From: Eledone cirrhosa
Lineage: Eukaryota
Direction: 5' to 3'
NCBI GenBank assembly: GCA_964016885.1
Contig: OZ024757.1
Coordinates: forward strand, 4,340,001 to 4,404,000
Length of the DNA: 64,000 nt
Positions 1,712-47,025 of this stretch are shown here, one piece after another. The notes below the pieces were generated by a model, which saw nothing but the letters and a program-made list of their open reading frames with translations, was not told where the DNA came from and ran no database searches. A program made the translations under genes and the position numbers. Position 1 is the stretch's first letter, and each line of letters opens with the position of its first letter.

Positions 1712-4231
1712 CTCAAGCTCCCCTCTTTAAAGAACAACATCATTCCAACCACCATCAGGAATATACATCTACCCGAATGTTTACGATCACCATCCTTCGA
1801 AAACACCATCCGCCACATTCAACGCACGTTTATCAAGAAAATACTACGACACAACCACCACCAACTGCGACTCCATATACAAACGCTTTCCGAGCACATA
1901 GATCGTATAGCTCCAACCCTCACCCCTGACCACCAGGTCCAGGAAATACGCAAAGCTATAGATCAGTGTTACCACACCAGAGTCAAATATGATAAACAGC
2001 GCCTTATACGGAAATACGAATGGACTGTAAACAAATACTACAATGACAACATCCGCTCCCACAGACGGACCGACTACAACCACACCAGGAGCAACAGCTA
2101 TACAACACCCTCCGCTACACCCCCCAACATCGATCTACCTACCAACGATGCTTCACACCTCGTTACCGACTTAACCGGTACCCTCACCAACGACGAACTC
2201 GAACTTCTGCGCCTCGGACCCAAGTTCATCATTACACAGCGTCTCGATGATAGACTGAAACTCGACATCGAAACCAACTTCTGTCGGACAGCATATCAAC
2301 TGAAATGGCTAACCGCCATCCAAAACAACACCGAGATCGATTACAACCCCACAACCCACCCCACACTCCCCACGTATCACCTCGACAACCCACTCCACCC
2401 CCCACCCACCAACCACGAACTTGACACTAAACTACTCAGTTTGAAACATTCTATCTCTAACATCCTTTCCCAACACACACACACACACAATAAACGCAAC
2501 CTCACCAATGCACAATTTAATACTCTCACCAACCTAAGATCCAGGAACCTTGTGTACCTTCCCTCTGACAAGGGGAAAGAATTCTGTGTCATCTCGAGAG
2601 AGACCTACAACAACTTAGCTCTCCAACATCTTAATGACCACAGCCTCTACTCGAAAGTCACAGGGACCTCCTCGACTCTAATCGAGGAAGGCATTAACAC
2701 CATATGGACTAACATCTGTGTCCAACGAAAACTGCCAAAGAAGGTAAAAAACAACATAATGACTCGAAACAGCAAATTACCCACCTTCTACCACCTGGTT
2801 AAAACACATAAACAAGGACCCGATTTGAAAATCAGGCCCATTGTCTCTAGCGTGGAGGGCCCACTCTACAAAATATCGTGGCTGCTCTCCACACTACTGA
2901 AACCCATTCTACACACACTACCAGCCCACGTCAGCAGCTCAAAGGAGGTCTTGGAGCGACTACACCATCTGGCGCCCAACACCAGAAAGGACAACGGTTA
3001 TGCCTTCAGTCTTGATGTGGTCGCCCTTTATACCTCCGTACCAGCATCCCCAGCTGTCGACCTGTTGACCGAACGAGTCCGAGCATCTAACTTACACTGC
3101 TTCGGACTCACACACACGGACATCCACCAACTCCTCTCCTTCGTTGTGGATAATGCACTCTTCAATTTCCTCGGCCACACGTACAAACAAATCTCTGGGC
3201 TACCTATGGGCTCTAGTCTGTCCGGCATACTTGCGATCTCGTACATGGACCACCTGGAACGCAAGGCACTCAATACCTGCCAACCCAACGCCGTCGCCTT
3301 CTACTCCAGATACGTTGATGACATCCTGATACTTACTTCTTCCCGGGAGATGGCGAATGAAATTCACCAAATCTTCAACGATACTGACCATCACGTCGAT
3401 TTCACCATCGAACACCCAGGAGAAGACGGGTCACTCGCCCTCCTCAACTTCCGTATCAACATCTCGGAAGAAGGAGACATAAACACCACCTTCTACCGCA
3501 AAGCAGCGTGCAAGGACTTATTTGTGCATTATAACTCAGCCCTCCCCAACAACGCTAAGAGAGGCTATGTCCTAAATGAACTGACACGGATCACTAACAG
3601 ATGCAGCGACCCGATGGGTGGTCTCACCCATACCACGCAATTCCGTAATCTACTCAGATCTAATGGCTATCCCAAGCGACTGATTAACGGAATTAGAGAC
3701 CCCAGACCCAATAGACAGACGCCCACTAGAAACTTAAATAAAAGCAGCTGCTTCTTTAAAATCCCCCACCTGAGTGAATATACCACGAACGCCATCCGCA
3801 GGGCCATACGGACGGAGGGACTTGACATACATTTGGCCCACACAGGACCTTCGCTGCGAAGATGCCTCTCCAACAAACCCGACGAGTCAGATGGGACGTG
3901 TTCCCTCAGCAACTGCCCGATACGGGGGGCAGATTGCCTACGCACCTATGTCGTATATAAGATTCAATGCGATAAATGTAACAAGTTTTACTTAGGTAGC
4001 ACCATCCGACCCCTACATGTTCGTATCAAGGAACATATCAACACCAACGCATCTTCCTTCCGTAAACACATCCTTAAATGCGGAAACCCACAGGGTAGAC
4101 CCTTGGTCACAGTCCTAGCGACTGAACGCAGCATCGGATCCTTAAGGATAAAGGAAGCACTTGTTATTAAGAACCTCAGACCCCCATTTAACAACCGGGC
4201 TGAGAGAAATGAGCTGACATGGCTAACTTAA
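1712..4231 (+). CDS. Penelope-like retroelement polyprotein: N-terminal domain, reverse transcriptase and C-terminal GIY-YIG endonuclease (tentatively Naiad-like)
   Basis: The track ORF 2441-4231 stays open upstream in frame to the TAA at 1709-1711, giving about 839 codons. Motifs: LVTDLTGTLTNDELELLRLGPKF, PSDKG, LVKTHK..RPIVS, SLDVVALYT, GLPMGSSLSG, RYVDD, FYRK, C-x4-CP-x5-C linker, VVY-x3-CxxC-x3-YLGSTIRPLHVRIKEH, KEA..N. Confidence 0.93.
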   Translation, partial: LKLPSLKNNIIPTTIRNIHLPECLRSPSFENTIRHIQRTFIKKILRHNHHQLRLHIQTLSEHIDRIAPTLTPDHQVQEIRKAIDQCYHTRVKYDKQRLIRKYEWTVNKYYNDNIRSHRRTDYNHTRSNSYTTPSATPPNIDLPTNDASHLVTDLTGTLTNDELELLRLGPKFIITQRLDDRLKLDIETNFCRTAYQLKWLTAIQNNTEIDYNPTTHPTLPTYHLDNPLHPPPTNHELDTKLLSLKHSISNILSQHTHTHNKRNLTNAQFNTLTNLRSRNLVYLPSDKGKEFCVISRETYNNLALQHLNDHSLYSKVTGTSSTLIEEGINTIWTNICVQRKLPKKVKNNIMTRNSKLPTFYHLVKTHKQGPDLKIRPIVSSVEGPLYKISWLLSTLLKPILHTLPAHVSSSKEVLERLHHLAPNTRKDNGYAFSLDVVALYTSVPASPAVDLLTERVRASNLHCFGLTHTDIHQLLSFVVDNALFNFLGHTYKQISGLPMGSSLSGILAISYMDHLERKALNTCQPNAVAFYSRYVDDILILTSSREMANEIHQIFNDTDHHVDFTIEHPGEDGSLALLNFRINISEEGDINTTFYRKAACKDLFVHYNSALPNNAKRGYVLNELTRITNRCSDPMGGLTHTTQFRNLLRSNGYPKRLINGIRDPRPNRQTPTRNLNKSSCFFKIPHLSEYTTNAIRRAIRTEGLDIHLAHTGPSLRRCLSNKPDESDGTCSLSNCPIRGADCLRTYVVYKIQCDKCNKFYLGSTIRPLHVRIKEHINTNASSFRKHILKCGNPQGRPLVTVLATERSIGSLRIKEALVIKNLRPPFNNRAERNELTWLT

Positions 4232-41498: not shown

Positions 41499-41541
<43 letters not shown>

Positions 41542-42438
41542 TAAAACATGTCTATAGAATCACCAGATAAAATATATACCATTTCCTCTCCCAATTAGCA
41601 TAATTAACCATATAAAAATCGAATGGACCAGGCTATAAGAATAAGGCTTCTATAAAGAAATCTCCAACAAATAATTTATTGTCTAGATTAGAGCAAACTT
41701 CTGAAGAGTCCGATACTCGAGTTTCCGAAGTTATTGGAAATCTCAAAATGCGGACGAAACCATGGTCGAGGTAAATAAATGTATTCTCTTTTCTCTTAGT
41801 TTACTTTAAACCTAATTCTATTTAATTGACTGTATATCTGGGCGATTACGCTGTCGAAATATTCGATAAATATTCCGTCGCAGCCGACGCGAAGGGCTAG
41901 TTTCGGTTATTTGTTGGAGATTTCTTCATAGAAGCCTTATTCTTATAGCCTGGTCTATTCGATTTTTTATTTGGTTAATTATGCTAATTGGGAGAGGAAA
42001 TGGTATATATTTTATCTGGTGATTCTATAGACATGTTTTATGATATATATCTCTGATTATTTAATTTATTAACTTTTCATTGAGCCACAAAGTAACCCGT
42101 TGCAAAACACGTATATGTATATATGTATATATATATATATGTAAACCTTTATATGTAATAATCTCCCATCAGGTTGAGATACAAATTTGGCTGTATTGTG
42201 CTGTGCTTGTGGTTAGAAAAAGCTATCTCACTTACCGCTTTTCATAGGCGCCGCTAAACTCCACTGCAGGTTACTCCTCTTCCACGTGCGTCCAACTGCT
42301 TTACACCGGGAGCTGCCAAAATTCGCGTCCACACCGTTTCTGGTCACCACTAGAGAGGCCCTCTGCTGGCCCTTCCGGTCGAGCACTCCCCCGCTTCCGG
42401 CCACCGCACGCCACACCATACCCACACGCCCCCTGATC

Positions 42439-43413
42439 TCAAGGATCAATTTCCCCCTCGTCCTTCTGCATATGAAAGTCTGCTGTCCAGGTTGGTGGTT
42501 TACGACTTCTTTGCGATCTCCGCAGTGTTGGGGCAGCACTTTGGGTTTCCTCTTCCTCGGAGTCCGTTGACACAGTGATTCTACGGACATCCAGGACATG
42601 ACGTGGTACTCCGTCCACGGACACATTGTTCTGTGAATTTACGGCCGTCACCGTTCCCCTTCCCCATTGAGATGTGCAGCGTGCATCTGGGGGCTTAACC
42701 CAGACTTCTTCGCCCACCTGCACGAATGCACTCTCTCTCCCCACTGGCCGTTGTGGTGGCGTGCACGGGTGCCGCCACCTGTATCTGAATACTGCTCTGT
42801 GTGGCACCGATTCCTCGACCTGTCCCACCCAAGGGGACATGTTGTACCAGAACACTGCCTCCATTGGTGAGATATGGCCCCGCTCCGCCATTGCCTTAAT
42901 CGTCCGGTGGTGTCGCTCCACAATTCCATTCCCGCTCGGCCTGTGCGCTGCTCTGAAGAAACGGTCCACCTTCCATCCATCGAGCATCTCCCTCAGCACC
43001 TCCGAGCGGAACGGTGCGCTGTTGTCCATCAGCAGTTCGTCCACAGGGCCCCGCTCCAAGAACACCTCTCTCAACGTCCGCATGATTTCCTCGGCCGTTC
43101 CAGTCTTCATCTCCCTCCATATCGCCATCCGTCCTGGTCCACAGTCGACCATCGAGAGGTACGTTCCCTGTAGGTAGTGCGTTATATCCACCGCCAATCG
43201 CTTCCAGTCGCGATCCACCAGGAGGCTTCCCGTTTCGTATACACCCGGGGCGGGATCAATGGACTGACATCGGACGCAGCCTCTAACCACCCTTTGAATA
43301 CTGTGTCTGTTAACGTCCGAGTCGATTCTCCTGGCTAGGAACAGGCTCCTATCCACTCCCATGTGGTGCATGTCATGCAACCCTTTCAGATCCGACTCGG
43401 TCAGCCGACACAC
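42439..43413 (-). CDS. Integrase domain (HHCC plus DDE) of the LTR element, frame intact
   Basis: LHDMHHMGV..CVRCQ, AVDITH, LMDN, GNGIVERHHRTIK. Confidence 0.9.
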   Translation of the reverse strand: MCRLTESDLKGLHDMHHMGVDRSLFLARRIDSDVNRHSIQRVVRGCVRCQSIDPAPGVYETGSLLVDRDWKRLAVDITHYLQGTYLSMVDCGPGRMAIWREMKTGTAEEIMRTLREVFLERGPVDELLMDNSAPFRSEVLREMLDGWKVDRFFRAAHRPSGNGIVERHHRTIKAMAERGHISPMEAVFWYNMSPWVGQVEESVPHRAVFRYRWRHPCTPPQRPVGRESAFVQVGEEVWVKPPDARCTSQWGRGTVTAVNSQNNVSVDGVPRHVLDVRRITVSTDSEEEETQSAAPTLRRSQRSRKPPTWTADFHMQKDEGEIDP

Positions 43414-43437
43414 GGCAGCTATCTCATCTTCTACCTC

Positions 43438-45130
43438 TTACGGCGCTTCCATCCAGGCTTTCTTCACCCTAGTTAAGATGACCGCCCTATTTTTCTCTGA
43501 GAGCACGAAAACTACGCTCAGCCTCAGGTCGAACTCGGTGGCCAGCTCTCCTAAAGTTCCCAGGTGGCGCTTTATCAGCATCTCCGCCGCCCCTCTCGTT
43601 CGCACTCTCTTCTCACTGGTGAGCACTGATCTCACCCATCCGAGTACAGTAGCCGAGTCGGTGCGTATCTCGATGGTGCGCAGTCCCCACCTCAGGGCGA
43701 GGTTCACCCCTCTCAACACTGCGTCCAGTTCGGCCACATTGATGTGGTTGCAGTCGTCCTTCTTCCTAAGTCAGGTTGCATCCTCGACCTCAACACCTCC
43801 TATCTCCAACGTGACACCCAGCCCTATGCTGCTGGCATCGCACCATACGGTCCCGCTCTGTGATTTTGGAACATACCAGCGTCCCCGACTGGGTCGTCGG
43901 CCCTCCCCCTCCCCACGATCTCCTGCATCATGGCCACCGTCCTCTCTCCCACTCTGTCACTCCAAGTCACTCCTCCCGTTCGTCTCTTGACATAGCTGCA
44001 TGCCGTCCGGAGCCACCCAGCAATCGGGTAGTGACCCACCAACTTTCCACACACCGAGAAAAGCTCCCACCTACTCATACCTGGGCCCAGTTCTGGAACT
44101 TCATTTCCCCTCTGGAATACCAAGACGCCCGTCCTGTCTCGCCGTAGCCTAAGTCCCAGCGCGGCTCCTCCCTCCAACGCTTCTGACGGCTTCGCAGCCA
44201 GTCCATACTCCTGTAAATGGCTCGTGACCTCCGCCGCCGACACCACAGACTCGTCCACTAGGATGTTGTCAATATAGGAGTTAGTGGCCCTCTTCACCTT
44301 GTCGGCCTTTCCTAGAATGGTCTTGAGGACCGCTGCCATGATCTTCGGTGCGGAGCTCAGCCCGAAACCGAGCCTGGTCAGGCAATATGTCCGGCCCTTA
44401 TATCTGATCAGCTGATACTGCCAGAGCTTCTCGTCTATATGCAATTGCAAGTATGCCGACTTTAGATCTACGATTGCTGACGTCATGCGTCTCCACTCAC
44501 GCAGGGTTTCCCCACAGACATCCGTGACCTCGCCACCCGTGTAGCATGACACGTGCTCGTTCAGCTCCCGAAAGTCCAGCACCGGCCTCACCTTGTTCTT
44601 CTCGCTCGAACTCGCTCCTAATGTTTCCCTTCAATGTGTTGATAGCAGCTCACTTTGGTCTTCAGTGTTGGTGGTTCTCCCTTCCAGTACCACTCAACAA
44701 CCCATCGCTGCCCATCGAACACGGCCTTGAAGTCTTTGTCCTGCACAGTGTAAGCGGAGTATTTTTCCTCATGGGCCTTCTGGTTCTCCTGTCGCGCACT
44801 CGCAGCGCATACCGATGCAGCGGCGCCAAACGACACACCGACGTTGTTCACTGTGACGCCTCCTAGACGGCCAATTGCGTCCACGCCCATAACCACGCCG
44901 ATCACATCAACCTCGCTGTCTACTACGATGGCAGAAAGCCTTATTTTCCTTCCCCGTACCGCTATTTCCATCTCGCTGCGACCTCGGCATTCAATTTTCC
45001 TGCCGTCGACTGCCCTTACGCTGCTCTTCACTCTCCACCTCTGCGCCACCCCCGCGGTCACCAGTGTCGTAGTACAGCCCGTGTTCACGAGGGCTCGCTG
45101 TGGCTTTCCCCTCACGAAGACTTCCACCAC
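43438..45130 (-). pseudogene. pol: pol protease, RT and RNase H (frameshifted, catalytic substitutions)
   Basis: ALVNTG (D to N), RPVLDFRELN, DLKSAY, LGFGLSSAP, YIDN (YIDD mutated), WCDAS, AELDAV, RTDS. Confidence 0.9.
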
Positions 45131-45141
45131 AGGCAGCGCTT

Positions 45142-45899
45142 CTATTCGTAAGGGGCAACTACCGGCGCAGTAGTTCCCCTTGGATCGTTTCCCTGGTCGC
45201 AGTTAGTAGCGATGTGGCCTGGTCGCTTACACCGGTAGCATATTATTTCCGGCCTTGACTCTTTGCAGTCTCTAGCCATGTGCGGGCCCTGGCACCGAAA
45301 ACAGCGACCTCTAAACGTTCGCGGGCGACCGCGTTCCGTGGTTGCCTCCCTTTCACCATTTCGCTGCCAGCTGTCTTGAGCCTCTGTAGTTGCTATCGCC
45401 GCAACACTCTTTTTGGCCTCTTCTGCTATGATCCGGGCTTGTTGCACCAGTGAACGCATTTCCATTTCTTTGTAACCCGGGACTTGCTGCAGTTTCACCG
45501 CTATGTCGTCTGGAAATACATTTATGAACACCAACTGCACCGTGCGTTCGCATTCCACCTGATATCCAGCAACATAGCCAATCGCCGTATTTCCGCTGCG
45601 AAAATGTCGACGCGCTCACCATTCCATCTAATTCTTGCCAGCTTAACGAAAGCGGCTAACGGTCCCTCTGCAAATGCGTCTATCATGCGCCTCTCAATCT
45701 TTTGCGCATCTCTTTGGCTGTGTTCGTCCAACTCAAGGAAGAGTACCAACGCGTCCCCCTCGAGGTACAGTGCCATGAGGCCAGCCACATCTTCTATCTT
45801 CTGCAAGCTTGCGACCAGCCGGACTTTCCGCAGCCAAGCGACAACACCTTCCCCGGTAAATGCCCTGATAGCTTCGCTTGTTCGTAGTCTTGTCGCCAT
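45142..45899 (-). pseudogene. gag: gag (frameshifted) with two zinc knuckles
   Basis: CFRCQGPHMARDC and CYRCKRPGHIATNC. Confidence 0.9.
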
Positions 45900-47025
45900 C
45901 TTCTAATTTATCTTGCGGTACGTGATAAAAAAAACAACAGGCTCCTCTCTGTTTTTCCAGTAGCTTTTTTTTTTTTTTTTTTTTCAATCAGATCTGTTTC
46001 CAGTGCCGAAATAGCTTGTGGTTAGAAAAAGCTATCTCACTTACCGCTTTTCATAGGCGCCGCTAAATTCCACTGCAGGTTACTCCTCTTCCACGTGCGT
46101 CCAACTGCTTAACACCGGGAGCTGCCAAAACTCGCGTCCACACCGTTGCTGGTCACCACTAGTGAGGCCCTCTGCTGACCCTTCCGGTCAAGCATCCTTC
46201 CGGCCAAGCACCCTTACGGTCGAGCACTACCTCGCTTCCGGCCACCGCACGCCACACCGTACCCACAGTGCTTTCTAGCAAAAAGCCACCAGCCGTAAGC
46301 AACTACCACACTCCTTCCAACCTGACCGCTGCTACGTCACGATTCTTAGCCATTTTTGAATGTATTCTTGGCGCGATCACTTTGAAAAGTTTATTGTCTA
46401 GATTAGAGCAAACTCCTGAAGAGTCCGATGCTCGAGTTTCAGAAGTTATTGGAAATCTCAAAATGCGGACGAAACCATGGTCGAGGTAAATAAATGTATT
46501 CTCTTTTCTCCTAGTTTATTTTACACCTAATTCTGTTTAATTGACTATATCTGGGCGATTACGCTGTCGCAATATTCGATAAATATTCCGTCGCAGCCGA
46601 CGCGAAGGGCTAGTTTCGGTTATTTGTTGGAGATTTCTTCATAGAAGCCTTATTCTTATAGCCTGGTCTATTCGATTTTTTATATGGTTAATTATGCTAA
46701 TTGGGAGAGGAAATGGTATATATTTTATCTGGTGATTCTATAGACATGTTTTATGATATATAGCACTGATTATTTAATTTATTAACTTTTCATTGAGCCA
46801 CAAAGTGACCCGGTGTAAAACACGTATATGTATATATGTATATATATATATATATATGTAAACCTTTATATATATATATATATTTACATGTATTCGGTAT
46901 ACAATGGTGCAATTCACTTCTAGACTCAACGCCATATTCCCAATGACAGGGGTGACGGAGTACATTAATAAAGATGAAATGCGAAGTTTAAGGTGTTAGA
47001 GTCCTTTATTATTTGAGCCGTTAGA

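Follow-up and report, generated by a model that had tools for sequence, protein, structure and literature searches.

The window analyzed here, a 64,000-nucleotide stretch of contig OZ024757.1 from Eledone cirrhosa, contains a 4.06-kb gypsy-like LTR retrotransposon on the minus strand, and this element holds the primer site under study. In the direction of the element, its features are as follows.

46268..46272, minus strand: target-site duplication AGCAC, left copy, 5 bp
46017..46267, minus strand: 5' LTR, 251 bp, TG...CA
46029..46037, minus strand: U5 arm agatagctt, able to fold onto the primer site; absent from most relatives
46005..46016, minus strand: primer-binding position, 12 nt, exact complement of nt 1 to 12 of host tRNA-Phe(GAA)
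45142..45899, minus strand: gag region with start codon at 45899 and a CCHC zinc knuckle, frame broken
44618..45202, minus strand: aspartic protease stretch
43824..44630, minus strand: reverse transcriptase (RT) stretch plus DUF7047, which forms the thumb region in a relative's model
43438..43823, minus strand: expected single RNase H region, positioned by inference from relatives; frame broken in the window copy
42439..43437, minus strand: integrase stretch
42427..42440, minus strand: polypurine tract adjoining the 3' LTR
42208..42426, minus strand: 3' LTR, 219 bp, 95.9% identical to the 5' LTR over 219 aligned columns
42203..42207, minus strand: target-site duplication AGCAC, right copy

Paired TG...CA LTRs, a target-site duplication, and a polypurine tract mark this as an LTR retrotransposon. 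The coding part of the window copy consists of several broken open stretches in which zinc knuckle, protease, RT with DUF7047, and integrase follow one another, and the domain order gag-PR-RT-RNase H-integrase is that of Ty3/gypsy elements (Metaviridae). The RT is divergent: its best matches among solved structures were retroviral RTs at E values of 5e-8 or weaker, and a fold search returned HIV RT entries only among the best 50 matches listed. In the predicted model of one relative, P0123 (pLDDT 86.9), the thumb helices formed by DUF7047 are followed directly by one RNase H fold; neither a tether nor a second RNase H, as in the dual-RNase H layout of Tat, Odin, and retroviruses, was found in that model. 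Four relatives and the window stretches gave no match to the gag and protease Pfam families of BEL/Pao elements, and no chromodomain match was obtained. A profile search recovered 624 protein clusters at E values up to 1e-30, and the named protein relatives came from octopus (close), crustaceans, gastropods, a sea spider, a bryozoan, Trichuris, and the sponge Sycon; the species carrying the lineage include Trichuris suis, Aplysia californica, Sycon ciliatum, Palaemon carinicauda, and Watersipora subatra. Viral contigs searched for relatives yielded one weak match, and querying the host genome (3.0 Gb) with a distant RT gave 95 places, many of which coincide with sites known before. The primer site belongs to a gypsy-like LTR retrotransposon lineage marked by DUF7047.

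The surroundings of the element are themselves repetitive. A 490-bp direct repeat (95.5% identity) lies just outside both LTRs, at window positions 41675-42160 and 46390-46878, with further inverted pieces at 41532-41674. The element appears to lie between tandemly arranged copies of a different repeat. Elsewhere in the window, at 1712-4231, an 839-amino-acid open frame with RT and GIY-YIG matches represents a Penelope-like element.

On the minus strand, positions 46016..46005 read AGCTATTTCGGC and adjoin the last base of the 5' LTR (46017, ...CCACA) with zero gap, at an LTR end that is set independently by the 3' LTR and the target-site duplication. A sequence-only reading of this DNA had proposed that these 12 nt are complementary to the 5' end of tRNA-Phe and had named a differing host tRNA as grounds for abandoning the idea. 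The 5' end of host tRNA-Phe is identical to the complement of the site, and pairing with nt 1 to 12 of tRNA-Phe(GAA) is exact at 12 of 12 positions, terminating exactly at tRNA nt 1. At the other border, tRNA nt 12 faces the base adjoining the LTR, which is the geometry needed if the 3' end of the primer is nt 12. The site does not begin with TGG or match a tRNA CCA end, as it would in canonical priming, and it does not match an anticodon arm, as it would in half-tRNA priming.

In the host genome, 247 places begin with GCCGAAATAGCTCAG (the complementary 12 bases plus CAG), compared to 0 for the control. ARAGORN called tRNA-Phe(GAA) at the matched place in five of seven loci tested; of the other two, one had no tRNA and one was a degenerate copy. 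The genome has large tandem tRNA arrays (C4:117.36-117.54 Mb, C2:102.02-102.15 Mb, and C4:79.56-79.62 Mb), which comprise tRNA-Phe together with tRNA-Asn; intron-bearing elongator tRNA-Met; and tRNA-Lys(CUU). Exact CA+12-mer sites numbered 275+194+58 = 527 genome-wide, compared to 0+1+0 for the reversed patterns, and this is not chance. They span many families with unrelated U5 ends and leaders, and 52 of 60 sampled sites had sense gag-pol homology within 1.5 kb downstream. Since this set was chosen by motif, it demonstrates that the site is real and not how frequent it is. Close copies of the window element were sampled at 30 loci, one of which lacked the anchor and was left out of the junction count; of the 29 readable at the junction, 25 had the exact site and the remaining 4 were off by one transition. 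Lys- or Met-type sites were not found in the host genome in exact form, and one loose match was obtained in a search whose reversed control hit a repeat and was uninformative.

We examined relatives in other hosts in a manner that selected the loci independently of the motif. An RT profile fetched 87 loci (80 from metagenomes and 7 embedded in metagenome-assembled genomes [MAGs]), and the 53 with at least 1,500 nt upstream of the RT match formed the test set. The pattern AGCT[AG][TC]NNNGGC was present in the expected upstream zone of 41 of these 53 loci and on the opposite strand in 3. Among the 12 misses, 6 had a near site after CA (L139, L144, L150, L173, L179, and L180), L196 was doubtful, and L156, L184, L188, L189, and L192 had ample upstream DNA and no recognizable site. 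In six elements (L151, L153, L160, L166, L178, and L204/206) the LTR end was defined by the LTR pair, and the site followed it directly. After removal of 8 near-duplicates from 58 loci, 50 distinct flanks remained. ACA stood at the LTR end in 47 to 49 of the 50 at each position, and the 12-mer was highly conserved except at the bases facing tRNA nt 4 to 6. Information was 1.72 bits at the base facing tRNA nt 1 and dropped to 0.48 one base further on, values over the 50 flanks that are partly shaped by the search motif. No conserved TGG-type site was found near the junction in relatives.

Several side observations concern these relatives. The polypurine tract is strongly similar lineage-wide (window 42427-42440 and L120-L206), and a loose pattern for it, run without a control, matched 66 of the 87 loci. 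The sites of L139, L144, and L145 are one G short in the terminal GG compared with two common types, which gives an 11-nt version. L200 to L206 are animal-type retrotransposons inside contigs of three bacterial MAG records, and their presence there is likely eukaryotic contamination; in L204 to L206, the embedded relative lies within a tandem unit with tRNA-Ser(TGA) genes, and its 3' LTR is followed by a second LTR end and site.

Where the letters of the site change, they often spell the start of another real tRNA. The site of L180 equals nt 1 to 12 of host elongator tRNA-Met(CAU): it differs from the Phe site by five changes, all of which match tRNA-Met, the LTR-adjacent base included. The site of L173 equals the start of host tRNA-Lys(CUU), and those of L128, L183, and L201 equal the start of zebrafish tRNA-Lys(UUU) as tabulated in PMC4688932; the Lys and Met partners were taken from E. 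cirrhosa or zebrafish as stand-in hosts, and site and tRNA were matched within one and the same host for the E. cirrhosa genome only. Ten further distinct sites equal the start of a tRNA-Phe gene found in L217. In all, a tRNA partner was established for 25 of 50 distinct sites. The 25 without an established partner include two common types (10 and 5 sites), and these 25 are expected to be candidate tRNA-Phe starts of their own hosts. When viral contigs were scanned for tRNA starts, most of the genes obtained were of viral or prokaryote type, and 1 of 46 tRNA-Phe genes fitted a site variant; the one match to the Lys(UUU)-type start proved to be a tRNA-Phe of bacterial type. The supplement to PMC13524379 contained no further tRNA-Phe starts. 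The finding is broader than what the sequence-only reading had claimed, in that switches to the starts of Lys and Met tRNAs occur in the lineage as well.

The RT tree comprised 59 rows (L085, which gave no match, was dropped). L173 and L183 were sisters on it (97/92). One 12-mer type requires 9 changes among 10 tree rows, 7 of them forced by supported branches, and clustered no more than shuffles did; two other types were clustered. Site types are not simply inherited along the RT tree.

From the position of the site, its exact match, its conservation, its sharp borders, and the switches to other tRNA starts, we consider it likely that a 12-nt piece, cut from the 5' end of a tRNA, serves the element as primer for minus-strand DNA (tRNA-Phe here; tRNA-Phe, tRNA-Lys, or elongator tRNA-Met in relatives). 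The 5' strand of the tRNA would leave the acceptor stem and D stem and pair with the site, a cut between nt 12 and 13 would free a 3'-OH, and extension would begin at the LTR's terminal A and leave a blunt cDNA end. By analogy with Tf1, the cut is most likely made by the RNase H of the element itself, to which we assign a little over half of the confidence placed in the cleaved primer. Plus-strand synthesis may then run off the 5' end of the primer and recopy the site from the tRNA, which would account for the site tracking host tRNA sequences. Three copies match a minor host tRNA-Phe variant, compared to 0 for the control letter; recopying is plausible and weakly supported.

It is also possible, if unlikely, that a host nuclease produces the 5' tRNA fragment before packaging and the element takes it up ready-made as its primer, an explanation that departs from cleavage by the element only in who cuts. 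Such fragments are common in animals (PMC4688932); however, those tabulated there are 18 to 30 nt long, and the 12-nt length stays constant over many hosts, whichever tRNA start (Phe, Lys, or Met) is matched. We infer that this constancy suits a ruler set by the element's duplex.

Reverse transcriptases of retrons are known to prime from a branch. By the same chemistry, the tRNA here could stay uncut, with synthesis starting from the 2'-OH of nt 12 to give a branched RNA-DNA molecule, and this fits all of the sequence results equally well. We nevertheless judge it improbable: the LTR primer types listed in the survey PMC6317226 all rely on a free 3' end, which two of them obtain via cleavage, and the geometry is nearly that of Tf1, in which the RNA's initial 11 bases pair with the site and cleavage by RNase H falls between 11 and 12 (PMC7175516). 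Sequence alone cannot separate a cut by element RNase H, a cut by a host nuclease, and an uncut 2'-OH branch.

Quite improbable, in our view, is a site that binds tRNA 5' ends or fragments for packaging or regulation while the true primer lies elsewhere. tRNA fragments and pre-tRNAs have been reported to act on primer sites in silencing (PMC7472051 and PMC13537249). Against this stands the zero gap between the site and the LTR end, which is where a primer must terminate, and among the 50 distinct flanks no conserved feature other than the 12-mer was found near the junction. A TGG located 14 nt downstream in the window family is missing from sister families. Moreover, a silencing target would be expected to be lost, yet the site is kept across RTs whose median identity among relatives is 49%.

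The least probable explanation, which we regard as largely refuted, is pairing of the site with RNA of the element itself, the match to tRNA being incidental. Tf1 and Tj1 are known self-primers (PMC7175516 and PMC4600332), and the sequence-only reading had offered a U5/leader hairpin or self-priming as its alternative. The hairpin does exist in the window family, where the centroid fold contains a 10-bp U5/site stem, at -11.5 kcal/mol compared to -18.7 kcal/mol for the 12-bp tRNA duplex, but support for it ends with that family. For 45 relatives, pairing of the site with its own upstream 250 nt averaged -9.6 kcal/mol, compared to -9.5 kcal/mol with those of others (median rank, 0.41), and the longest exact complement in the element's own locus was 5 to 8 nt in 49 of 49 cases and 6 nt in the window LTR. 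Covariation of relatives with the U5 arm, raised earlier as a possible refutation of the tRNA match, was not what we observed; instead, the match to tRNA starts is retained while U5 varies freely, and changes in the site follow tRNA starts and not U5. The earlier tRNA-start reading is thus supported by these comparisons, with priming itself the inferred step.

Two further candidates were rejected. Pairing of U5 with tRNA nt 13 to 32 gave a P value of 0.009 in host families (15 representatives, which are not independent) but 0.26 in 49 other-host relatives, and we dropped it because of this null result and because a tRNA-Ser control pairs equally well in the host genome. In 6 of 15 host families, a splice-donor-like GGTAAGT or GGTAGGT precedes the LTR end by 26 to 29 nt (in the window, at about 46046-46040, minus strand), and an intron starting at such a donor would take the primer site out of gag mRNA. 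A primer made by splicing, which was evaluated by donor motifs only, was rejected because the motif is rare in relatives elsewhere: GGTAAGT preceded the LTR end in 3 of 49 other-host relatives and lay downstream in 2 of 49.

Taken as a whole, the site is real, is conserved across a large animal lineage, and is best read as a primer type that is not listed so far. The survey PMC6317226 lists whole tRNA, half tRNA, and self-primer; a 12-nt 5'-terminal tRNA primer, if confirmed, would be a fourth type that links tRNA priming with Tf1-type self-priming, and it would bring gypsy-like elements into the range of truncated-tRNA priming. The literature covered, which lay outside subscription journals, older papers, and Repbase Reports, held no description of DUF7047 or of a primer site matching tRNA nt 1 to 12. 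A site at the 5' end of the tRNA explains why standard primer-site searches leave a large lineage without a site. If the cleaved-primer reading holds, very short 5' tRNA fragments should arise from a source linked to retroelements, and the primer site should be a target of 5' fragments and not of 3' fragments. More tentatively, and at a confidence somewhat short of even, we propose the fuller picture of an ancient lineage, ranging from sponges to cephalopods, crustaceans, and nematodes, that would capture the tRNA 5' end, cut it after nt 12 with its own RNase H (Tf1 chemistry in trans), recopy the site, and jump among Phe, Lys, and Met, as a fourth kind of LTR priming.

Like canonical 3'-CCA priming, including that of the tRNA-Phe-using errantiviruses described in PMC13524379, priming in the window lineage would use a host tRNA and a site beside the 5' LTR (8 to 18 nt in canonical elements); in contrast, its site lacks the initial TGG and is complementary to the other end of the tRNA. 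PMC13524379 searches tRNA 3' 12-mers only, and such searches would miss a site that faces the 5' end. Mollusc and annelid gypsy clades are classified in PMC6238403 and PMC8220671, which do not analyze primers. With the half-tRNA copia-type elements (Osser, Bryco, Bianca, fungal copia, and Helenus; PMC6317226 and PMC10886601) the lineage would share a 3'-truncated tRNA primer. Those elements use a tRNA cut within the anticodon arm, and their site corresponds to the anticodon region, with anticodon-loop sites reported for fungal elements in PMC10886601, and PMC6317226 assigns half-tRNA primers, among the three primer types surveyed, to copia lineages only; the window site, in contrast, matches nt 1 to 12, ends at the first base of the tRNA, and belongs to an element of gypsy-type order. 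Tf1 and Tj1, which are Tf1/sushi chromoviruses (PMC7175516 and PMC4600332), resemble the lineage in the chemistry proposed, with a primer that consists of the 5'-terminal 11 to 12 nt of an RNA, pairs at the primer site, and has to be freed by a cut, and the gypsy-type domain order is common to both. Unlike them, the window lineage has no self-complement, conserved U5 structure, or chromodomain match. Tf1 and Tj1 draw this primer from their own transcript, whereas the window lineage is proposed to take it in trans from a host tRNA.
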